A stretch of DNA of 64,000 nt from a virus (Duplodnaviria > Caudoviricetes). Below, in pieces: positions 1,525 through 52,643 of this stretch (the stretch's first letter is position 1; the number at the start of each line of letters is the position of its first letter). Position numbers and translations under genes: made by a program. The notes under the pieces are model-generated. The model made no database searches, was not told the DNA's origin, and worked only from the letters and a program-made list of their open reading frames with translations. The stretch lies in IMG/VR virus record IMGVR_UViG_3300028596_000001; one strand, given 5' to 3'.

Positions 1525-3696
1525 ATGGCTACGGTATCTACCAGGGATAAAGACATTATCACTAAGTCTTTCCGCCTGCTGACTCGGGGTGTTCTACCTA
1601 CCGACGTGCTGGACAGGATGGACTGGGATAAGTACTTTAACGTATTTAGTAGCGCTACTGGCGACAACCGTTATGTTAACCCAGTGGCTCAATCGAGTCC
1701 TCACACCGACCCACGCTACGGGCGTTTCATGCAAACCCGTGAAGGCGGGATGGGTGCCTTTTATAAGAACCACATGGAAGACAACGTCACCCTGCTGACT
1801 ATTGTTCCTGGGGTTCCTCAGTTTGCTGGTTTGTTGCAATTCATCGCGAACATGTTTAGCCCTAGCGCTGCCATTATCGCGAACAAAGGTCGTGCTCCTG
1901 GTTTGGCTTTCTACATGGGTCAGGCCATCACGGCTACTGCGTTCTTCCCTATGCAGTTGCTGTCAGCTGGGTTGCAGTTCTTTAACTTCTTCCTGGACAA
2001 CCCGACTAACACCTTCTGGTCGGTAAAACCTGCGATGGGTGCTTACACCATGGCCTCCACAGGTGTGCTCAACGACTTGATGGTACGACTGGGTTATATC
2101 GACCCCATCCTACCTAAACGCGCTCAGGAGCAGAACGACCCGCTGTACGGTCTGAAGCCTGACTACGATAACAGTCATGCCATTGCTGACCTACGCATGT
2201 TGATCCCCGATTCGGTGAACGAAGACGGCACTATCGACTTGATGCGTCTGGTCATGAAGGGTACTCGTAAACACCGGGTAATGCTTCGTGAACTGGCCAA
2301 GCTGGATAACGAGACTATTACTTCGGTAGAGGACAAGATTACTCGTAGTCGCCAGATCCTCGAAGAGGTAGAGTTCGACGAAGCCACCTGGGCTGGTGAA
2401 CCTAGCCAGGCATTCGTTGAAAAGGAAATGAACACGGTTAGCCGTTTCCGCGAAGGCGAAGGTAACAACGTCGAGCAAGATTCGGCATACACCCACCGGG
2501 CAGCTTATGACAGCGCAGCAGCAGCGAAAGAGGCTGGTGCTTTGGGTGTGGGTAACGTGGACAACGCTGGTCGTTCCGTTGACACTATCATGCAGGAAAT
2601 CTCCAGCAGTGCTTCTCAGGGTAGCTACGGTACGGGTAACCCGAACGAAGCGGCTGGTCGACCTAAACCGGCGAGTGACAACAACACGACCAACAACCCT
2701 AACGTAGCTGGCGGGAAACAAGCTTACTATGAAGATAACCCGGACGATCGCAGTTGGGCAGGTGACATTTTCGACTTACTGCGCACTGCTGCTTATGGCG
2801 GTATGGACGGGATCACTTGGCGAGTTGATGGTAATGCGGGACCTACTACAGACTCCTTCTCCAACACTCATGCTCAGTCTCCGTTAGCCAGTAAGTTTAA
2901 CTCGGTAGTAAAAGCCGCGAACGACTTCCGCTTTGATATTGCCGGTGGTGCTACCGGTGTGGATATCATTGATGGCGTGGTCGATATGTTCAAAGAGTCG
3001 GCTATCGGCGCGATGTCTGGCACGGTAATCGGTAATATCCCTATGGCCTTGGTGAACAACTCGTACATCAAGATCCCGGATCACTGGGATGGTTCTACCA
3101 CCAACCTGCATAAAGAAAGCTACAGTATCTTCTTCAACTGCACCTACGCTCACCCGTATGAACAGATCATGAAGATTTGGGTACCGTTTGCTTTGTTCCT
3201 GCCGTTGGTTGCGCCATTCTCGGCTGGTGGTTCTTCCTACACCTCGCCGTTCATGTGTAAAGCTTTCTGCCAAGGTCGTTCGATCATTCGTACCGGCATG
3301 GTAGAGAACGCCACCTTTACCTGGGGTACTGGCGAACGTGGTTGGACTCGTGACCGTAAACCGTTGAACCTGCGTATCGACTTCAACATCGTCGATCTGG
3401 ATCCTCTGATCTCCGTACCTATTGACCGTTCGATCAGCTTGCTGGAAGTACCGAACATCTCGGGTATCGCTAACAAGATCCTCAGTGATGACACCGGTTA
3501 CAACAACTTCCTCGGTCGTATTACTGGTGTGACCTACCTGGATACCTTCCTCAAGTACAGCCGTCTTAACCGCGGTATGACCACTGTGGCTCAGGACATC
3601 CAGACCAGTATCCGTGCTGACAACATTGCTAGTAAAGTTTCCGACTCCATCGTCGGTTCGTTTGCAACACTCTTTGCTCGTCCTATGGCCCGATAA
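1525..3696 (+). CDS. Virion structural protein following the tail lysin (phiKZ gp182-like position)
   Basis: 723 aa ORF with core-gene codon usage; synteny recalled from phiKZ-like phages. Confidence 0.6.
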   Translation: MATVSTRDKDIITKSFRLLTRGVLPTDVLDRMDWDKYFNVFSSATGDNRYVNPVAQSSPHTDPRYGRFMQTREGGMGAFYKNHMEDNVTLLTIVPGVPQFAGLLQFIANMFSPSAAIIANKGRAPGLAFYMGQAITATAFFPMQLLSAGLQFFNFFLDNPTNTFWSVKPAMGAYTMASTGVLNDLMVRLGYIDPILPKRAQEQNDPLYGLKPDYDNSHAIADLRMLIPDSVNEDGTIDLMRLVMKGTRKHRVMLRELAKLDNETITSVEDKITRSRQILEEVEFDEATWAGEPSQAFVEKEMNTVSRFREGEGNNVEQDSAYTHRAAYDSAAAAKEAGALGVGNVDNAGRSVDTIMQEISSSASQGSYGTGNPNEAAGRPKPASDNNTTNNPNVAGGKQAYYEDNPDDRSWAGDIFDLLRTAAYGGMDGITWRVDGNAGPTTDSFSNTHAQSPLASKFNSVVKAANDFRFDIAGGATGVDIIDGVVDMFKESAIGAMSGTVIGNIPMALVNNSYIKIPDHWDGSTTNLHKESYSIFFNCTYAHPYEQIMKIWVPFALFLPLVAPFSAGGSSYTSPFMCKAFCQGRSIIRTGMVENATFTWGTGERGWTRDRKPLNLRIDFNIVDLDPLISVPIDRSISLLEVPNISGIANKILSDDTGYNNFLGRITGVTYLDTFLKYSRLNRGMTTVAQDIQTSIRADNIASKVSDSIVGSFATLFARPMAR

Positions 3697-3708
3697 ATAA
3701 ACCATAGC

Positions 3709-3748
3709 TAATACTCCCTACCTCCCGCAAGGGAGGTAGGGAGTATTA
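3709..3748. terminator. Bidirectional hairpin, perfect 18-bp stem, GCAA loop
   Basis: taatactccctacctccc-gcaa-gggaggtagggagtatta between convergent genes. Confidence 0.85.
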
Positions 3749-3754
3749 GGAGTA

Positions 3755-4876
3755 TTAACGAGGAAATTGTGGGGCGCCACGGAATTGGTTACGCAGTTCA
3801 ACCAAGCAGCTACCTTCGGTAAACTTACCCGCTGTACACAACAGAGGGATAATAGGTTCATAACCGCTGAGCAGAGTAACCATGTCCTTACTTACCCGCG
3901 ACATGATTGCCAGATTAAGGACCTGTCCGAATTCAGTGTAGGTCATCCACCAGTTCTGCCCGATAATCCGTTCGAACACTTCCAGCATCATAGCCAACAA
4001 GGCAGGATAGTCTTCCGGATACACACTGTCGTCGAAACGGAAGTTACTGAACAGGTTCTCTACGAAGTTCGGATACTTGGACATGATGATCTTGCGGTTA
4101 GCCCCCAGACCACCGTCGTCCTCATCCAACAACTTTAATACTTCATGGATACTTTCAATGTCACCATTGGTGATCATGAATTGCAACGCTTCGATAACAC
4201 CGTCGCGACGCAATACACCGAAACCTTTAGGGTAGCTATTCCACAGACTGCGGTAGCTATCCTTCATCCCCATCTGTGCAGCGTTCTTGTAGATGGAGTT
4301 ATACAGCGCGCCGGTAACACTACGGTCCAGATACTGGTCCATACCGGTGACCCGGATAATCATCCGCCCGGTCTCACCACCAACGATACCCCGCCAGTTA
4401 CGGTTGGCTTTAAAGGTAGAACCGTCGGTCTGTACCAAACCACCCATATTCAAGCCGGTGAGGCGGGTAAACTCTTTGTTGATGTCAGCAGCGACCTTAC
4501 GCATCGCCCCTGATTCACTGGATACCGGATAGCCCAACTGTTTAGAAGCAGCAGCCAGGATATTGTCGGTACTGAACGTAACACCGTCACGCCCTACCTT
4601 AATAGACTTGGAGATATCCTTGGTGTTCAACAACCCACCAGAGATAGCGCCAATAACACCATCGAGTACGTCTACTACGCTGTCACGGTACTCGGTGATA
4701 GTACCTTTGATACCAGTGTCACGCGCAGTCTTGGTAGCAATGCCGTCACCCATGCGCCGGCTAGTAACGTTATAAGGAGTAAGGTTATCCTCCTTAACTC
4801 GCTGCATGGATGAGTTAGTGGTTTTCTTGAAACTGTCCAGATCGGGAGCTAAGTTAATCCCCTCAAAGGCATCCAT
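3755..4876 (-). CDS. Probable virion structural protein (jumbo phage core)
   Basis: 373 aa ORF with RBS; position in core block. Confidence 0.55.
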   Translation of the reverse strand: MDAFEGINLAPDLDSFKKTTNSSMQRVKEDNLTPYNVTSRRMGDGIATKTARDTGIKGTITEYRDSVVDVLDGVIGAISGGLLNTKDISKSIKVGRDGVTFSTDNILAAASKQLGYPVSSESGAMRKVAADINKEFTRLTGLNMGGLVQTDGSTFKANRNWRGIVGGETGRMIIRVTGMDQYLDRSVTGALYNSIYKNAAQMGMKDSYRSLWNSYPKGFGVLRRDGVIEALQFMITNGDIESIHEVLKLLDEDDGGLGANRKIIMSKYPNFVENLFSNFRFDDSVYPEDYPALLAMMLEVFERIIGQNWWMTYTEFGQVLNLAIMSRVSKDMVTLLSGYEPIIPLLCTAGKFTEGSCLVELRNQFRGAPQFPR

Positions 4877-6025: not shown

Positions 6026-6040
6026 GTAATATAGGTTTAA
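6026..6040 (-). promoter_or_regulatory. Early promoter motif (TTAAACCTATATTAC)
   Basis: Contains TATATTAC, the published phiKZ early promoter core; recurs upstream of leftward blocks. Confidence 0.7.
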
Positions 6041-7980: not shown

Positions 7981-8667
7981 TCAGCCCATACGCAGGTTGA
8001 AGTTGGTATCGATGTGACGAGCACGGAACAAGTAATGTACAGTGGAAAGCACCTTAGCAATAGTGCCTTTGCGCAGGCTGCTATTGGTGTTGGTACGCCC
8101 GGTAGTCAAGAGATCGTTCTTGTATGCCTTCAGAGCTTCCAAGTCACCACCCTTAACGTTGTATAGTTCGTTGGCCATGATGTCCAACCCCAGGTTACGC
8201 AGAACCGCGATCTCTGGCTGGCTGATACCTGTCGAACGGCTGTCGCCCATTACCTGACCAGTAAGGTCGTCGATGCTGTAGTCGTTCGCTGCAGCGCCGA
8301 ACTTGGTAACCTGCATCTGCCGTTGCTTACGCAGACGAACGATACCAGTAATGGCGGTGTGCGGAGTCATCGACTTGATGCCGGTGTCGGCGTCGTGGAT
8401 GATCAGTTGCTGCTCGATCTTCACCCCGTACTTCTTGGCCAGCTTGAGTATCCGCTCGTAGTTGATCATCTCCTTACGGTTCCAGTTGCTCACCCAGATG
8501 CTGAGGGGCATGCCCTGTTCCATCTGTACGACCATCTGTTCGATCTGCTTGTCGTTCAACTGGGCGAAGAGCTTACTGTAGATAACCTTGTTACCCCCGC
8601 CTTCAGTAACCTCGCCCATGAAGTTCAGGACGAAGTCTTCGAAACCTTTACGGTTAGCTGCGGCCAT
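7981..8667 (-). CDS. Virion RNA polymerase beta subunit, C-terminal fragment (phiKZ gp149-like)
   Basis: DDLTGQV..DSRSTGISQPEIAVLRNLGL...ELYNVKGGD aligns by eye with RpoB C-terminal GGQRFGEME..ALEAYG..QEMLTVKSDD; adjacent to UvsX as in phiKZ. Confidence 0.8.
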   Translation of the reverse strand: MAAANRKGFEDFVLNFMGEVTEGGGNKVIYSKLFAQLNDKQIEQMVVQMEQGMPLSIWVSNWNRKEMINYERILKLAKKYGVKIEQQLIIHDADTGIKSMTPHTAITGIVRLRKQRQMQVTKFGAAANDYSIDDLTGQVMGDSRSTGISQPEIAVLRNLGLDIMANELYNVKGGDLEALKAYKNDLLTTGRTNTNSSLRKGTIAKVLSTVHYLFRARHIDTNFNLRMG

Positions 8668-9041
8668 TACTGTTTCCTCTGATAACCAAAGGTGGTGATG
8701 GTCTTCTGAGCATTGCCCAGTACTTCTTTGGCCACCGAGATGAACGGATCGGATACAGTGTTGGTCAGCGCCAGCAGTTCATCGAACATGCTCGCAACGT
8801 TTTCCAGGTTCTGTCCGAAAGCCGTCTTGTTCTTGTCGTCAATCGGCAGTACTTTAACCGACGCATCAACACCGCTGATGCCATAACGGCCACTAACGGT
8901 CATCAGAGTTACTTCGTTCTGGCGTTGTCCCAGAATGGTACGCAAGCGAGTAATGTACTCGGTTGGATCCTTACACAGATTAGCGAAGTTGCTGTCTGCT
9001 ACTACCAGAATGATATTCGAACTTTGGACAGGAGGTACCAT
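8667..9041 (-). CDS. Hypothetical protein
   Basis: 124 aa, TAATG stop/start overlap with RNAP fragment. Confidence 0.65.
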   Translation of the reverse strand: MVPPVQSSNIILVVADSNFANLCKDPTEYITRLRTILGQRQNEVTLMTVSGRYGISGVDASVKVLPIDDKNKTAFGQNLENVASMFDELLALTNTVSDPFISVAKEVLGNAQKTITTFGYQRKQ

Positions 9042-9120
9042 TCCTTTAATCCCCTAATGCAAAAAATTGTGTATAGAGAGACCCGGGTTGAATTCCAGAT
9101 CCCTCTATAAAAAGTCGGTG

Positions 9121-10599
9121 TTATTTGATCCAGTACGGCTTACGCTCGCCCAAAGCGATCTTCAGCAGCTCCATTGTCGATACGGAGTGTTTCAGAATAC
9201 GCGGGTTGGTGTGCCAGTAATCAACGGTATTTTCCAGAATGTCATTCCAGTCATACCCCTGTTCTTTGATCTTCTCGTACAACTCTTTTGGAGTGATACG
9301 GTACTTCCGATCGAGGTCCAGCCAGATCTGTTGCATGTGCGCCATCTGGTAGCAGATGGTCAAGGCACGGTAGAACTTGGGATCGTTCATCGCCTTATCC
9401 CACGCAGTAGTACGACCTACCTTCAGTTCTGGATACAGCACGTTCCAGTGGCTGATGGCGGTGCCGTCAAAACCCCAGTACTTGGAAGTCTTGCACGCGT
9501 GGTACATGGTCAGACCAATCTGTACTCCGAGGCTTTGAGAGCCAATAAAGAAAAAGTCGCCACCAGAAAGGCCACTCTTATTACGGAATACGTTAAATGG
9601 GTAGAAAAGAAGATCAGGGTTTTCTTTTGCATTGGGGTCAAGAACTACATCGTTGCCGAATGGGTTAGGGTACATCCACTCTTGGCCGTTCTTCAATGCA
9701 CTGCCGCTAACGATACGAATACCGGTTTGCGGGATACGCAGCATGGAACGAGGAGCTTTGAGTTTCTTACCAGGAGAGATGAAGACTGTTTCTTTTTCCT
9801 GGGGACGACCGGAGATGTTAATCACATCAGTGATCTGGGCGGTCCACCATTGAAGCATGCCGATCTCACCACCGAGGTTGTCAGCATCTTCAAAAACGAT
9901 ACGGCGCATGTTGCCGATCTGCATGTCACGAGTACGCTTCTCGCCACCTTCGTCCACGTCACCTTCTTGGAAGTGAGCGGATACCTTGTGGAAAGGCATT
10001 TCCGAGATCGAGTCGACGAACGACATGATCGGAGTAATGTGTTGGAGTGGCTTACCGTCGTTGCCCAGATAAGGCAGGTCCATGTAGATACCTGGCTTCT
10101 TAGCCTTGATATCTGCCTTAACCATTTGGTTGAGGTCTTTGAACAGATGGTGAACCCAGGTGCCATCGACACCAGAGATACTGCCCATCAGTGCAGGGTT
10201 CTTGAATGGGTTCGCGCCAACGTCGTTCTTGTTGAAGTAGAAGAAGCGCTTGTTGAACACGTGCTCCATGAACTCGCCTTGTACGCCACAGTGCCGGTCG
10301 TATGCCTTGGCAATACGAGTCACTTGCAGAGTGGCTTCGATATCCACCACGAAAGCAACCGAGGTAGGGATACGCCAGAGAACAGTTACAATGTCCTCGA
10401 TGCTGCTGCCGGTTTTCTGAGTGTTGCTACCACCGGTCTTCGCGTTGTTGTGTACAGCACCCCCGTTGAGGTAAGTAATACCACCTTTACCTACAACGTA
10501 TTCCCCATTGATGATGTCGGAAACTGGGTTGATATTAAAAGCCGGAATGATGGAATCCGACGATTCAACCTCGTCCATAAAGCTAAAAGGGGTGGTCAT
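9121..10599 (-). CDS. uvsX: UvsX/RecA-like recombinase (phiKZ gp152-like)
   Basis: YLNGG..TGGSNTQKT variant Walker A, VVDIEAT, IMSFVDSISE Walker B; 492 aa. Confidence 0.8.
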   Translation of the reverse strand: MTTPFSFMDEVESSDSIIPAFNINPVSDIINGEYVVGKGGITYLNGGAVHNNAKTGGSNTQKTGSSIEDIVTVLWRIPTSVAFVVDIEATLQVTRIAKAYDRHCGVQGEFMEHVFNKRFFYFNKNDVGANPFKNPALMGSISGVDGTWVHHLFKDLNQMVKADIKAKKPGIYMDLPYLGNDGKPLQHITPIMSFVDSISEMPFHKVSAHFQEGDVDEGGEKRTRDMQIGNMRRIVFEDADNLGGEIGMLQWWTAQITDVINISGRPQEKETVFISPGKKLKAPRSMLRIPQTGIRIVSGSALKNGQEWMYPNPFGNDVVLDPNAKENPDLLFYPFNVFRNKSGLSGGDFFFIGSQSLGVQIGLTMYHACKTSKYWGFDGTAISHWNVLYPELKVGRTTAWDKAMNDPKFYRALTICYQMAHMQQIWLDLDRKYRITPKELYEKIKEQGYDWNDILENTVDYWHTNPRILKHSVSTMELLKIALGERKPYWIK

Positions 10600-42997: not shown

Positions 42998-43546
42998 TTA
43001 TTTAAATTTGTCGATCCAGGACCACTTAATAGTAGCTGGTCCTACACTTTCCAGAGGGTTCTTTGGATCGCCGAATGGATGAATGAACATGGTGGGGGAA
43101 GCGTTAGTATTAAAGATCCTCACACGCCCTACGAACTGCATATGAACAGGATCCAGGATGCAGGTCTCCTCGGTCACACACGCATCCCAGATCATGCGCT
43201 GCGCCGTCAGCTCGGCAGGAAGGATGATGTCCTCCTTACCGGTGAAACGCGGGCGAAATACCGAGTACTCCATATAGGGGTAGTTCTTCTTCTCGAACAA
43301 ATGAGCCACATTAGGGAACACTCCCCTGAAACACTGCTCGATAGTAGGAGAACAAGAGATACGTGGGAGATTAGGCTCAGGGTAAGGGAAACTGATATCC
43401 CCTATTATTTCCTGAGCTTCATCAAAACCATCTGGGTTGTTAGGATGCCACATCCCTTGGAACGTAGAGTTCTTGAAAGAGATGTGGAACATTTCCTTAA
43501 ATCCAGGTTTGGACTTCACCGTCCGGTACTTGAGTTTATCGCCCAT
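42998..43546 (-). CDS. Putative ADP-ribosyltransferase-fold protein
   Basis: FHIS (strand 1), PRISCSPTIEQC (S-x-S), WDACVTEETCIL (late Glu). Confidence 0.5.
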   Translation of the reverse strand: MGDKLKYRTVKSKPGFKEMFHISFKNSTFQGMWHPNNPDGFDEAQEIIGDISFPYPEPNLPRISCSPTIEQCFRGVFPNVAHLFEKKNYPYMEYSVFRPRFTGKEDIILPAELTAQRMIWDACVTEETCILDPVHMQFVGRVRIFNTNASPTMFIHPFGDPKNPLESVGPATIKWSWIDKFK

Positions 43547-44102
43547 GGTCAATGTGTCCTATGGTCCCCACGTTGACGTATGCGGACCGGTCTTTAGAGG
43601 TTGGTCGATAGTTACTACGTGGCATCTTTGCACGCCACATGGCTTCCTCTACCCACCCCTCACGATGAAGATTACGAGGGACCGGGTCCTTTGTATGGTT
43701 ATCCCGATCCCCATTAAAGAGATAATCACTGTACGTCCTACCAATGATCTCCTTGATGTTGCGAGCAGCGATCTTCCAGTGGTTGATCTGGTATTTCAAC
43801 AGACAGCCTACCCGCCAACCAGCTACCTTTATATCAATTCCATCCACTGTCACATATGGGGCGAATTTAGGCATCTGGATGGCGCGTACAAACGGATTGG
43901 TGACGTTAGTGACAGGAACGTGCATGTACTGGACCCAATCGTCCACTTCGGCACCACAGGGTACGTGGCGATACGCCGCCGGAGGTTCCCAGCGCAATGT
44001 CACCTTCGCAGGGCGGTACTCCCGGGTGATTGGATCCTGGCGCATGAAACTTATTTCTTTTTCAATAGCCACGCTTCGTTTCCTTTTCTGGGTATCTGGC
44101 AT
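43536..44102 (-). CDS. Hypothetical protein ending in EF-Tu N-terminal/P-loop peptide
   Basis: C-terminus [18 protein letters not shown], read codon by codon at 43539-43592. Confidence 0.7.
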   Translation of the reverse strand: [188 protein letters not shown]

Positions 44103-45330
44103 CGTTCAACCGCTGACGCGTCTTAACGATGTGGTTACGCACCCTAGACATGCAACTGGTGTGGGTTAGTCTAACCAGGAGGTTGCCGTTGCGATCACGG
44201 CCAGGCATACGCCCGTACAACTGGATGTGGACCAAAGACTCTACCGCACGTTCAGCCCAAGGCTCCAAAGGAAGAAAAACCTTAAGGGGTTCCATGGCGT
44301 GTTGGTACATGTATTCGACGTCACGATCTATAATCGCTCCGCTGGAACTACTCTGAGCGCGCATAGCGGCTCGAAGTGTTATCGAGTCACAGATCCAACT
44401 GTCTACGTCACCACGCACCATCCTGGCCGGGAAAGTATGTATCTTCTTTCCACCAACATAGAGAGTATTGTACTCGAGTTTGATATATGTTGGATTGGCA
44501 TTAGCGCTGAACTCTTCCACGGCTTTGGCGAAGAAAGAGCTGAACACTGGTACAGAAAGAGAGCCGGTGTAAGGCCAGTCTTCGTAAGTATCGGAAAAAC
44601 GTAGCCCGCTGAACAGATTGCGCTCACGTTCGATCCCGTCCCTGTAGTGGTTAATGAAACCACTGTCCTCCAGGCAAAGGAACAGAGCGTTCTTACGTAG
44701 CCCGCCGAGGAACGAATTACGCCAGATGCCTGGGTGACGATAACGGCTTGGGTACAGGTAAGGGCTTTGGGGCAATGCTAGTTCACCACGACGGAAACCG
44801 CCACCTTTTGCCTGGCCATGCCTCACGGTTTGCCACATGTGGTGGCCCATGATCATTTCCTCCGAGGTGAGTGGTGTTCTGGCGGCTGTAAGGCAGTCCT
44901 TGGTCATGGAACTATGACCAGAATAGCGACTGAAGCTACCCAGCGGTAAACCATTACGAAGGTGCTTGTTCAGAGCATCAAGTCCGGTTGGCATTTCGGT
45001 TCCACAATTACCAAAAGGAGCGCTCACAACCACCGGAGCGCGCGTCAATAATGTACGTCCTCCGAAATAATCCCGGCATCTCTGGAGCATCTCCTTCCCT
45101 GCTGATGTTACCGGCGGATGACTGATTGTGCAGGTGAGGGGACCTTTTAATCCATCGGTTAACAACACCGCCCTGGCAGCAACATTTTTGGCATGGTCTT
45201 CGGCAGTAAGGTACTCGATCGACGGGTTCTTGGCGTTTTCCAGATGCTGGATTGCTTCTTCTACCGACATAGCTGGCAGATCCAGGAGAGTACGATCAAT
45301 CAAGCCTGGTGTAGGGGTTTTCTTGTCCAT
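44062..45330 (-). CDS. Hypothetical protein with degenerate RecA/DnaB-type motif relics
   Basis: Start moved to MDKKTP (GGAG RBS); PTGLDALNKHLRNGLPLGSF..SG.SSMTK and GGGFRRGEL. Confidence 0.65.
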   Translation of the reverse strand: MDKKTPTPGLIDRTLLDLPAMSVEEAIQHLENAKNPSIEYLTAEDHAKNVAARAVLLTDGLKGPLTCTISHPPVTSAGKEMLQRCRDYFGGRTLLTRAPVVVSAPFGNCGTEMPTGLDALNKHLRNGLPLGSFSRYSGHSSMTKDCLTAARTPLTSEEMIMGHHMWQTVRHGQAKGGGFRRGELALPQSPYLYPSRYRHPGIWRNSFLGGLRKNALFLCLEDSGFINHYRDGIERERNLFSGLRFSDTYEDWPYTGSLSVPVFSSFFAKAVEEFSANANPTYIKLEYNTLYVGGKKIHTFPARMVRGDVDSWICDSITLRAAMRAQSSSSGAIIDRDVEYMYQHAMEPLKVFLPLEPWAERAVESLVHIQLYGRMPGRDRNGNLLVRLTHTSCMSRVRNHIVKTRQRLNDARYPEKETKRGY

Positions 45331-45406
45331 CTTGAATTGCTCCGAACGATTATGGAGGTGTGTAATAGACCGACCTACGTCGTATGGAATTACTACATCG
45401 TCATCT

Positions 45407-45985
45407 TTAGGCACAGAGCATTTCCTCCAGCGGGTGTTTGCCGAAGTCACAGGTACGTGTACACTCACCAACAGTAACAGTAACTTGCTTGTTCATGAAA
45501 GGTAGCTTTGCCACACGGATGTGTGCCAGTGTATCCTTCCATTTGCCGCTCAGGTCGTACTCGAACTCTCTGTCCCCGAGGGTTTTCAGGAATTCCAGCA
45601 CGAAGTGTTTCAGGATGTCGTACATTTGCATTGTAGAAGGACGTCCGTCCAACATGAATGCTTTGAAGAGGTTCATCCACGCCTCATCAAGATCGTGGCT
45701 CCCCGCCGCTACAGTGTAGGAGTAACGACGACTACGGGTAAACCAGTAATACTTGGTAGCACTGCCGCTGCTGAACACAACCATTTTGGTGTGCTGGGCA
45801 TGAGTAACACCGAACAGGGTGATGTTGCTACCCAGATTCGGTTTGACGACATGAACACGACCCGAAGCCATCGCACTCGCACGATGCTGGGTGGTAGGGA
45901 TCAGTTGATCACGGTCAAGTACAACAACACCTTCCGACATATCGAAAGGGAATTCGTGTTTCAGTTCAAAAGCCTTAACCAACAT
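45407..45985 (-). CDS. Hypothetical protein (paralog of 46038..46499)
   Basis: 192 aa; shared LIP.T...S.L..NI.....T.Y.W core. Confidence 0.65.
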   Translation of the reverse strand: MLVKAFELKHEFPFDMSEGVVVLDRDQLIPTTQHRASAMASGRVHVVKPNLGSNITLFGVTHAQHTKMVVFSSGSATKYYWFTRSRRYSYTVAAGSHDLDEAWMNLFKAFMLDGRPSTMQMYDILKHFVLEFLKTLGDREFEYDLSGKWKDTLAHIRVAKLPFMNKQVTVTVGECTRTCDFGKHPLEEMLCA

Positions 45986-46037
45986 GGATCTTCTCCTAAA
46001 AGAACATCGGGGATCTAAGTCCCAATTAAAAGTGTAA

Positions 46038-46499
46038 TTAACGTGAGTAGTTATGCAGAACTTGGCGACTAGCCATGTTGCGTAACTTGAGAGCCAACCA
46101 CTGTGTAGATGTTTGGTTCTTGTAAGCGAGCGACTGGCTCAAACGAATGAAGTTAGCCGCGGCTGCCAATAAAGAGTTACAACCTACCGGGTAAGTTGCT
46201 TGCATTTTAGGCAGAATGTCTCGAGCACTACCCAACCAGAAGTAGGTTGTTTGCACCCCATCACTTGCTACAATGATGATGCCGCCGTCCCCACGTAGCG
46301 CAAGATAAAACCCAATGTCATTCTTGAGCGACGTGGAAATACAAATGTGTCGTTTCAGAATGGTGTGCGGTATCAATTCCGCTGATTGCCCGGTAGCCCA
46401 ACTAACTGGTTCACCAGTCATGCGGTCAACGAAGAAACGTTTCTTCACGAGCCCGAGCATCTTGGCTTTATGGACGTCGAGTTCCTTTAAGTCAGACAT
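46038..46499 (-). CDS. Hypothetical protein (paralog of 45407..45985)
   Basis: About 153 aa, AAGGA RBS. Confidence 0.65.
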   Translation of the reverse strand: MSDLKELDVHKAKMLGLVKKRFFVDRMTGEPVSWATGQSAELIPHTILKRHICISTSLKNDIGFYLALRGDGGIIIVASDGVQTTYFWLGSARDILPKMQATYPVGCNSLLAAAANFIRLSQSLAYKNQTSTQWLALKLRNMASRQVLHNYSR

Positions 46500-46551
46500 G
46501 GTCATTCCTTAAGAAGATAGCCCCAGTTGTATTAACCTGGGGCGAGTGTTA

Positions 46552-48711: not shown

Positions 48712-48742
48712 GCAGCCCCCATTACAAATTAAATAAACCTAA

Positions 48743-48770
48743 CCCTACCTGCCCCCGGGGACAGATAGGG
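48743..48770 (-). terminator. Hairpin
   Basis: Minus strand ccctatctgtccc-cg-ggggcaggtaggg, then T-rich. Confidence 0.7.
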
Positions 48771-48776
48771 CCAGAT

Positions 48777-49331
48777 TCAACTTACCAACCGAGTACGTTT
48801 AAAAGGTATGCTGATACGTTTATCAGGCTGGTCCATGTCTCGGAAGTACAGAACAGCGTGACTGGTAGTCGGCGAGAAGTCCTTGTTGACGTACAACATG
48901 TAGTTCTTACCGTCCACCGGTACCGGCAGGTGTGGCCGCAGATGCATCAACACGTAGTTGAAGATCCGCAGATACTTGTGCTCGTAGAACTCGTCGATGA
49001 TCGCTGCAATACGCGGACCTACCTGGCAACCGAACAATTCGGGTTTCTGCTCAGTGCGGGCACGGTGTTGGCAAACAAAGATCAACTGTGAGTCTACGTC
49101 TTCGTTGTTGAGGAATTTCTTGATTGGTGTTTCTGGATTGTGGATCATTTCGATCAGGCAGTCCAGGCCGAACAAGAATTCACGAATAAGGTATTTTGCA
49201 TCCCGCCCAAAAATGTCTACCAACTCCTGGGTCAACTCCGGACCGAATACTTGGTCGTAGTAATTCTTGGTGATAGCCCCCAACAGGTGATGCCCGTGGA
49301 AACTAGCTTCCATCTTCTTAGCCCCTTTCAT
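48777..49331 (-). CDS. Hypothetical protein (paralog of 49400..49966)
   Basis: Shared EF..GLD and [VL]DG[KR] segments. Confidence 0.65.
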   Translation of the reverse strand: MKGAKKMEASFHGHHLLGAITKNYYDQVFGPELTQELVDIFGRDAKYLIREFLFGLDCLIEMIHNPETPIKKFLNNEDVDSQLIFVCQHRARTEQKPELFGCQVGPRIAAIIDEFYEHKYLRIFNYVLMHLRPHLPVPVDGKNYMLYVNKDFSPTTSHAVLYFRDMDQPDKRISIPFKRTRLVS

Positions 49332-49399
49332 AAAGGTCGCCTCTACTAAAACTGTTTAACGTCTCCCCCTAGTAATGTAGCTTTGAATATGTGTAGAAG

Positions 49400-50975: not shown

Positions 50976-52643
50976 TTAATTGCCCAGGCTAACAGAGTCC
51001 AGTTTGTTGCTGACCATGATGCTCGACATGTTCGCCAGGATCTTGGCAGTCTGCATACCACCTTTCAGAGCGGTGATGGACGCGTAGGCCGTGTCGTAGA
51101 TCCCGAGTTCTTCAGGCTGGCCACGACGACCGGTTGCCAGATCGAGTACATCTTTCTGCTCGTTGGCGTCCTGGAAGATACCTTCCATGAGGATTTCGTT
51201 TTGCTTGTGCGCAACGTCGATAACCCCACCGAGGATAGCCTTCCATTCGTTCGGGAACCAGATGGTTTCCGGGCCGGCGACTTCCTGCTCCACGAGCACC
51301 GCTACGGTGTCCATTGCCTTGATGAGGGTAGTACCAACCCCAGGCACGATACCGTTCACCAGCGCGCTCTTGACCGCCTTGATGACGTCTTCGAAACGGT
51401 CCTTACGTTCCTTCACGTCAGATTCGGTTTCGCCACCGACCCAGATGGTGATTACCTTACCGGTCATATTCCGGATACGGGTTTCGTCGAAACGAGCACG
51501 ACGGTTGAAACGGTTCAGTCCGTCATAGTTACCCAGCGCTTCACTGATCTCTTCCACACGCTCAACGATACGCGCCTTGGCTGCTTCACCAGGTTCGAAG
51601 ATCGAACGTACGTTGTTGGTAGTGAGCGGATCGGTAACCATGGTGATGTCGGTGTGCAGTACCTGGTCCAGGTTGGCGAACATAGGAACACCGAACATGA
51701 TAGCCAGGTCTTGCATCATCAGGCTCCCTACCGAGCCACCAGCACCGTTTACACGGCAACCGACGAACTGCATGTTCAGAGGAACCTGTTGCTGGGCTGC
51801 CCGCTGTTGCAGAGCGCCGTTGAAAGCGATCACCACGTTGTCCATGTTGGTCTCGATCGAACGAGTGATCAACAGGACCGTGACCAGACCTTCTTCGTGT
51901 TTGACGTCCTTGAAATGTTCCAGTACCGCGAACAGATCTTTCGGATCGTTACCACGAATGTAGTCATCGACGATTACCGGAATATAACGATCATAGGTAA
52001 CCTGGGTACGGTTCTTACCGGCATACAGCGGGTTGCTGTAGACGATGCCCAGATTCAGACCGTCGGTACGCACGACTTTGTCTTCGGCTTCCACACCGTG
52101 AACCAGTTCGATTGATGGGAACGAGTCTTCGTTTTCACGATACAGGTTCACCACCAGCGACGACAGCTTGACGTCGTTGTTCGACGAGGTGCGGGCCATG
52201 TCGTACAGGCGCTTGTCAGACACGTCGATGTGGATGGTGTTGTTCTGGAGCTCGGTGATCCACATCTGGCAGAGCTTGTCGATGAAAGCTTGTTCCTGGT
52301 AGGTATCGAACTCGCGATACAGCTTGAACAGTTCAGCCATCAGCAACGTGGTAGTGGTGGTACCGTCACCGCACTCTTCATCGGTCTTGATCGGTGCTTC
52401 GGTAGCCACCTTGTTGACCAGCTCTTTACGCGGGTCATTGAACTTGATGGAACGGGCAACGGTTACCCCGTCTTTGGTGACCTTGGGTTTGGTACCAGTG
52501 CTGATGACCGCCAGCTTACCGTTTGGGCCCATGGTCGCTACTACGGCCTTACGTACATCTTCGACCACTTCCGACACCAGTTCACCAGTTTGGGCGATGG
52601 TCAGGAAATCAACAATACCAGTGCTATTATCAAAACCGCGCAT
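50976..52643 (-). CDS. groEL: Phage chaperonin (GroEL-like, phage EL gp146 type)
   Basis: TMGPNG, TKDGVTVARSI, EECGDGTTT, VGGETESDVKERKDRFED, GIVPG.G, GIYDTAYASITAL; no GGM tail. Confidence 0.95.
   Translation of the reverse strand: MRGFDNSTGIVDFLTIAQTGELVSEVVEDVRKAVVATMGPNGKLAVISTGTKPKVTKDGVTVARSIKFNDPRKELVNKVATEAPIKTDEECGDGTTTTTLLMAELFKLYREFDTYQEQAFIDKLCQMWITELQNNTIHIDVSDKRLYDMARTSSNNDVKLSSLVVNLYRENEDSFPSIELVHGVEAEDKVVRTDGLNLGIVYSNPLYAGKNRTQVTYDRYIPVIVDDYIRGNDPKDLFAVLEHFKDVKHEEGLVTVLLITRSIETNMDNVVIAFNGALQQRAAQQQVPLNMQFVGCRVNGAGGSVGSLMMQDLAIMFGVPMFANLDQVLHTDITMVTDPLTTNNVRSIFEPGEAAKARIVERVEEISEALGNYDGLNRFNRRARFDETRIRNMTGKVITIWVGGETESDVKERKDRFEDVIKAVKSALVNGIVPGVGTTLIKAMDTVAVLVEQEVAGPETIWFPNEWKAILGGVIDVAHKQNEILMEGIFQDANEQKDVLDLATGRRGQPEELGIYDTAYASITALKGGMQTAKILANMSSIMVSNKLDSVSLGN

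Follow-up and report, generated by a model that had tools for sequence, protein, structure and literature searches.

The minus-strand gene at 44062-45330 was found to encode a protein whose middle part, on sequence comparison, is probably copied from the first part of the motor of the phage's own DnaB-type helicase and has since decayed to a non-catalytic form. The window, which is the whole stretch of 64,000 nucleotides that was analysed (IMG/VR virus record IMGVR_UViG_3300028596_000001), was found to belong to a soil jumbo phage which is uncultured and related to Pseudomonas phage EL. With moderate confidence, the gene product is read here as a non-catalytic binding protein which would contain the relic of a phage DnaB-like helicase core together with a domain of the type present in the neighbouring gene; its fold, its lack of activity and its binding role we infer.

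Nucleus-forming jumbo phages contain many unnamed genes, and one such family would here be given an origin, namely as a decayed piece of a replicative helicase. The helicase origin together with the link to the neighbouring EF-Tu-tail gene would unite two orphan genes in a single testable module, of moderate present value in a family that is rare and uncultured.

The gene, its locus and its family

The features located in and around the gene were as follows.

44062..45330, minus strand: the gene studied here, 422 aa with the stop codon included (open reading frame list and translation; homologs in conserved synteny)
45340..45343, minus strand: GGAG ribosome-binding site, 9 nt before ATG 45330 (sequence reading)
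44899..44991, minus strand: motif 1, residues 114-144, lineage-specific and outside the putative ATPase relic (partly kept in the homolog P0003 only)
44773..44805, minus strand: motif 2, residues 176-186, with the family-invariant GGGFRRGE core (alignments A4 and A11)
44677..44712, minus strand: motif 3, residues 207-218, lead-in to the strand ending in a conserved Glu (family alignment and helicase comparison)
44650..44811, minus strand: putative degenerate DnaB-type ATPase-core segment, residues 174-227, which contains motifs 2 and 3 (hhalign against the chimallivirus DnaB-like profile)
44233..44532, minus strand: C-terminal domain, residues 267-366, with a VGG beta-hairpin and then an E.WAE.A helix, common to the gene and its neighbour
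44065..44118, minus strand: conserved basic C-terminal tail R.RL..A..P...KRGY-COOH (invariant or near-invariant columns in alignments A2, A4 and A11)
43536..44102, minus strand: neighbouring overlapping gene, 188 aa, ending in an EF-Tu-like peptide, tandem paralog of the C-terminal domain of the gene studied here

The three strings quoted in the earlier, sequence-only reading of this DNA were found in the minus-strand translation of the open reading frame 44062-45330, which is a real gene. The frame was found to remain open upstream as far as TTG 45471, with ATG 45330 as the likely start. The Cpn60 gene of the window (50976-52643) was found to have 38% identity to EL gp146, and the gene order from the chaperonin onward was found to be that of EL gp143-gp150. 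At the DNA level no match to the region was found in the phage collection by megablast, and three family members gave no match by tblastn against 50,697 phage records. The syntenic slot of phage EL is occupied by gp151 (L006:16770-17633), which was found to have no detectable similarity to the family (E 0.3) and could be a very distant counterpart of it. The start of gp151 was found to contain a GG turn followed by a hydrophobic strand and a P-loop-like H-P-G-K-S.

The genes 45407-45985 and 46038-46505 (both minus strand), the next two upstream of the gene studied here, were found to be diverged paralogs of each other and to cross-match 8089-8766, 8763-9278 and 9332-9910 of locus L003. The first of them is homologous to EL gp150, and the stretch around 45407-46505 was found to be a series of duplicated small genes. 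A strong hairpin with a 20-bp stem was found at 48735-48778 (minus strand), directly past the gene 48777-49331, and is likely a terminator by which the transcription unit containing the gene studied here would be bounded on its 5′ side. The 'putative phage promoters' annotated in phage EL have a consensus which the site at 49372-49386 (minus strand) was found to match with two mismatches; sites of this kind were also present at 6026, 25948 and 26225, and the overall count of 11 was barely over chance (mean 5.1).

About 16 members of the family were found, so far only in EL-like (nucleus-forming) phages that are uncultured; the homologs in conserved synteny were P0003-P0010, L001-L005 and L019-L021, the L loci being contributed by metagenome and IMG/VR scans. 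Few relatives were found by HMMER over 1.8 billion representatives and by a word-indexed search over 5.8 billion proteins, and the window protein gave no relative when IMG/VR was first scanned with it. In every locus, the homolog was found to be flanked by the same 192-aa gene on one side and, on the other, by the EF-Tu-tail gene and then a phrog_10766 gene. The identity among the family members was 20-34%, often over the C-terminal part only, and that of the flanking genes was 55-71%.

The window protein was found to contain the whole signature of the family, namely GGGF[RK][RKS]G[EQ] followed by I..(7-9)..V[GA][GD], E.WAE.A and a C-terminal R.RL with a basic tail (alignments A2, A4 and A11). 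On these alignments it is a new family, defined by GGGF[RK][RKS]G[EQ], the V-G-G hairpin, E.WAE.A and the basic KRGY tail. A four-Cys knuckle, C-x2-4-C-G-x-C-x2-C, was found N-terminal to the GGGFRRGE core in P0005, P0007, P0008, P0009, P0010, L019 and L020; the window protein, P0003, P0004 and the L003 group were found to lack it.

The helicase-like segment

The earlier reading had described three relics of a RecA/DnaB ATPase entry motif, in a protein built from repeated P-loop fragments. One DnaB-type entry segment, residues 174-227, was recovered, not three. The pairwise local alignments of the motifs, scored against 2000 shuffles, gave P 0.79 (motif 1 vs 2), 0.29 (1 vs 3) and 0.05 (2 vs 3), and the internal-repeat hypothesis was rejected by this shuffle test. 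The motifs were found to differ in conservation. The core of motif 2, GGGF[RK][RKS]G[EQ], showed little or no variation in about 15 homologs whose identity is otherwise 20-30%. Motif 3 was retained in two sub-branches as R[KP]N.L....ED, terminating in the nearly invariant Glu E221, and was rejected as a second entry motif, being the lead-in to the Glu strand. Motif 1 was retained in the closest homolog P0003 only, in which PTG and 'MTK' were both altered; it was rejected as an entry motif because the family alignment pairs it with a separate upstream helix in the other members.

In the segment, a GG turn and a strand were found to be followed by an eroded P-loop, then by a helix and by a further strand which terminates in E221-D222. 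With the window protein as master, hhalign against a profile of 10 chimallivirus DnaB-like sequences gave Prob 59% and E 9.3e-5, and the alignment paired window residues 174-227 with residues 213-274 of EL gp76; other runs against the same profile gave E 2.9e-4 (73 columns) and 7.8e-4, these values being somewhat inflated in significance, since the helicase family was picked after the motif had been seen. All the hhalign comparisons reported here were made without secondary structure and from shallow alignments (Neff 1.6-3). The hhalign scores of 40.2 and 41.8 were compared with column-shuffle maxima of 28.1 (82 shuffles) and 24.4, and none of the 182 shuffles came near the real score. On enriching the helicase profile from 3 to 10 sequences the signal grew from E 0.006-0.012 to E 9e-5 to 8e-4, as true homology would predict. 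As controls, the same 10-sequence profile gave E 0.35 with T4 UvsX, E 0.24 with the neighbour family and E 2e-7 with bacterial DnaB. A diverse bacterial DnaB profile, which was not selected for GGGFRRGEL, matched the family at E 0.003-0.006, a score reached by none of 140 shuffles. On the hhalign helicase matches, motifs 2 and 3 are read as successive elements of a single decayed core segment, the pre-P-loop strand coming first and then the helix with the Glu-ended strand.

In gp76, the DnaB-like replicative helicase of phage EL, and in the orthologs of gp76 from two complete contigs of jumbo phages that also contain family members, GG[LF]RR[GS] was found, followed by an NRGKS Walker A and then by a strand ending in S-A-E-D. 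The Glu-Asp of this S-A-E-D, in the H1a catalytic-Glu strand of EL gp76, was aligned with the nearly invariant E221 (L-E-D) of the family. The helicases of two phages which also bear family members (G001 and G002) were found to contain GGFRRG at the aligned turn; GGFRRG is the reading in the DnaB-like helicases L075 and L076. The family thus resembles these SF4 helicases, which have a RecA-like C-terminal domain and co-occur with it in the same genomes, in the GG[LF]RR turn, the hydrophobic strand, the position of NRGKS, the helix and the Glu-Asp strand. It differs from them by having no Walker A GK[ST], no detectable Walker B, H3, H4 or arginine finger and no N-terminal DnaB domain, by being about 90 aa shorter and by another C-terminal domain; on these sequence features it is not a member of the DnaB_C/SF4 helicase family.

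The DnaB proteins L022-L026, found in an IMG/VR scan, had 49-50% identity to the family over about 42 residues. They are ordinary DnaB helicases of unrelated small viral contigs, and were found to contain the exact GGGFRRGEL, in which they differ from most bacterial DnaB proteins, with a canonical Walker A after it. An unbiased feature search of the ESM Atlas returned viral RecA-superfamily clusters only, at a score of 0.83 which is a lead only.

The profile comparison that had been proposed for the segments gave a divided result: the 13 members tested by HMMER contained no match to Pfam DnaB_C (PF03796), RecA, KaiC or AAA at E up to 10, whereas the match to the chimallivirus helicase family was obtained profile to profile. 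PHROGs, NCBIfam and PDB sequences gave no match with single proteins or with profiles. A Pfam RecA/DnaB_C profile search in EL, phiKZ and related contigs also gave nothing, such a search being too insensitive for genes so diverged. The AlphaFold2 models from 8- and 15-sequence alignments were of low confidence (pLDDT 35.7 and 42.7) and contained no clear alternating beta-alpha core.

The strongest competing explanation, although unlikely, is that the protein has an unrelated fold in which the GG turn is a common glycine-rich strand-turn-strand element resembling the helicase by chance or convergence and not by descent. It is entertained because only about 50-78 residues were aligned with the helicase; the hhalign probability was at most 59%, and the negative HMM library and PDB sequence searches and the AlphaFold models would also agree with it. 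Against it, the alignment was found to extend well past the GG turn, up to 73-78 columns, across the P-loop position and as far as the SAED/LED Glu strand, with no shuffle of the 182 near it; the profiles of bacterial DnaB, chimallivirus DnaB-like proteins and T4 UvsX all selected the same region in the same order, and the ESM feature search independently indicated the RecA superfamily.

Under the preferred reading, descent from a helicase core, most of the catalytic equipment has been lost. The Walker A motif G/A-x4-G-K-[ST] was absent from the window protein at either possible register, where H-P-G or W-R-N was found, and the main subgroup was found to contain an elongated loop ending in R-F-K-S at this position. 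The earlier reading was therefore right in that the Walker A is destroyed, with no GK[ST], but the 'SSMTK' it had named is not the remnant. Its further statement that no Walker B follows agrees with the present analysis, in which none was detected: regional hhalign tests of Walker B (H2) and H4 were not significant, and the aligned Walker B position was variable. A Walker-B-like match in one alignment was rejected as neither robust nor reproducible, and a correspondence of Walker B and H4 to DnaB, suggestive by eye and in one alignment, was likewise rejected as not robust. No H3, arginine finger or other helicase motif was detectable in the protein beyond the Glu strand. With the Walker A lost and the Walker B, the arginine finger and the other helicase motifs undetectable, the protein should not hydrolyse NTP.

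The neighbouring EF-Tu-tail gene and the proposed role

The overlap with the EF-Tu-peptide gene that had been noted earlier was found to be 41 nt in the window and 4-11 nt in the relatives, and the tie proposed between the two genes gains an evolutionary basis in their common C-terminal domain. The A4 profile matched the neighbour protein at 14.3 bits, a score reached by none of 1000 shuffles, and a 6-sequence profile of the neighbour was aligned with residues 267-366 by hhalign at Prob 64-78% and E 1.8e-5 to 6.3e-5. In locus L021, the slot of the two genes was found to contain one 345-aa gene (2863-3900), which carries the N-terminal helix and the GGGFRRGE of the target family together with the C-terminal domain and the EF-Tu-like tail of the neighbour. 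From the common C-terminal domain and this single gene, the two genes are concluded to be tandem paralogs; the single-gene form of L021 may be either ancestral or a recombinant between the two.

The neighbour family resembles the target family in this C-terminal domain of about 100 aa, and the two genes were adjacent, overlapping and co-oriented in all loci. It differs in that it has no helicase-like segment and ends in a copy of the EF-Tu strand and P-loop, whereas the target ends in the KRGY tail. The EF-Tu-like peptide, N-V-G-T-[IV]-G-H, was found to be invariant in six diverged members of the neighbour family and matched EF-Tu profiles at positions 5-25.

In the preferred reading, the central segment would descend from the start of the ATPase core of the phage's own DnaB-like replicative helicase and would have inherited the pre-P-loop strand, the P-loop, the next helix and the catalytic-Glu strand. 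The Gly-Lys-Ser of the Walker A has been lost, and the helicase relic is joined to the C-terminal domain common with the EF-Tu-tail gene. The partner of the protein would be the helicase itself, or a factor which normally recognises the GGFRRG region of the helicase, and the binding would be through the GGFRRGE turn and the KRGY tail, two short motifs which stay invariant although the scaffold that bears them varies. By analogy, we infer that binding to the helicase or to such a helicase-recognising factor is the most likely role. Dead paralogs of RecA-superfamily ATPases, such as the Rad51 paralogs with degenerate Walker motifs, are kept for binding or regulating the active paralog. The likeness of the family to these Rad51-type proteins is one of concept, with no sequence relationship, and its core is only partly recognisable. 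A helicase-derived dead paralog in jumbo phages was not found described in the literature. Binding to the helicase or to its partners, if it occurs, could make the protein a missing loader or regulator in the replication of jumbo phages.

The fast divergence, the indels and the tail swapping of the family agree better with a gene for host interaction than with a cofactor of replication. In an improbable alternative, which is close to the NTPase mimics proposed earlier, the paralogous scaffolds would display strand-plus-P-loop copies of the phage DnaB-like helicase and of the host EF-Tu, by which a host factor (a defence sensor, a protease or a toxin) would be baited or blocked. It is kept in consideration because of the invariant short motifs on a fast-changing scaffold (20-30% identity in the target vs 55-71% in the flanking genes) and the link to an EF-Tu mimic, whose peptide matches EF-Tu profiles and does not vary within the neighbour family; the presence of both elements in the single gene of L021 and the identical GGFRRG in the helicases of two phages that carry the family also speak for it. 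In the RecA fold, however, the GG turn adjoins the nucleotide site and forms no obvious recognition surface, and most of the P-loop element that would be mimicked is gone from the window protein. Still more doubtful is the particular form in which the tandem paralogs, or the single gene in some phages, would be a mimicry module against a host factor attacking P-loop NTPases, with the helicase and EF-Tu elements on a fast-evolving scaffold. If the protein does act as a mimic, it would represent a new counter-defence principle.

Comparison with UvsX and RecA

The profile of T4 UvsX was aligned with that of the main subgroup by hhalign at E 0.0045 over 132 columns, and none of 90 column shuffles reached the score. 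The likeness to T4 UvsX and RecA consists of a co-linear but weak match at the profile level, obtained for the main subgroup only and including F-K-S-N after the entry strand, and the ESM feature neighbours of the protein were viral RecA_N clusters. In contrast, the protein was found to have no Pfam match to RecA/UvsX (PF00154) and no similarity to the chimallivirus UvsX-like family, which includes the window gene 9121-10599; the hmmsearch score with the UvsX profile was no better than those of shuffles.

The possibility that the family is an active NTPase with a non-canonical P-loop, in which the N-R-F-K-S of the main subgroup would recall the F-K-S of T4 UvsX, is hardly credible: it would agree with the hhalign match to T4 UvsX, with the Lys-Ser pair kept after the entry strand in the main subgroup and with the nearly invariant Glu at the catalytic-Glu position, but the loop exceeds every Walker A in length by 3-4 residues, the Lys-Ser pair is missing in several branches besides the window protein, E, K, Q or T is found where the Walker B Asp would be aligned, and the chimallivirus UvsX-like family is not matched.

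The window gene 9121-10599 (minus strand) was found to be a canonical chimallivirus UvsX-like recombinase, with 27% identity to phiKZ gp152 (tblastn E 6e-37) and 57-62% identity to the EL-type and RisingSun orthologs (alignment A7), and the phage therefore keeps a normal recombinase besides the gene studied here.
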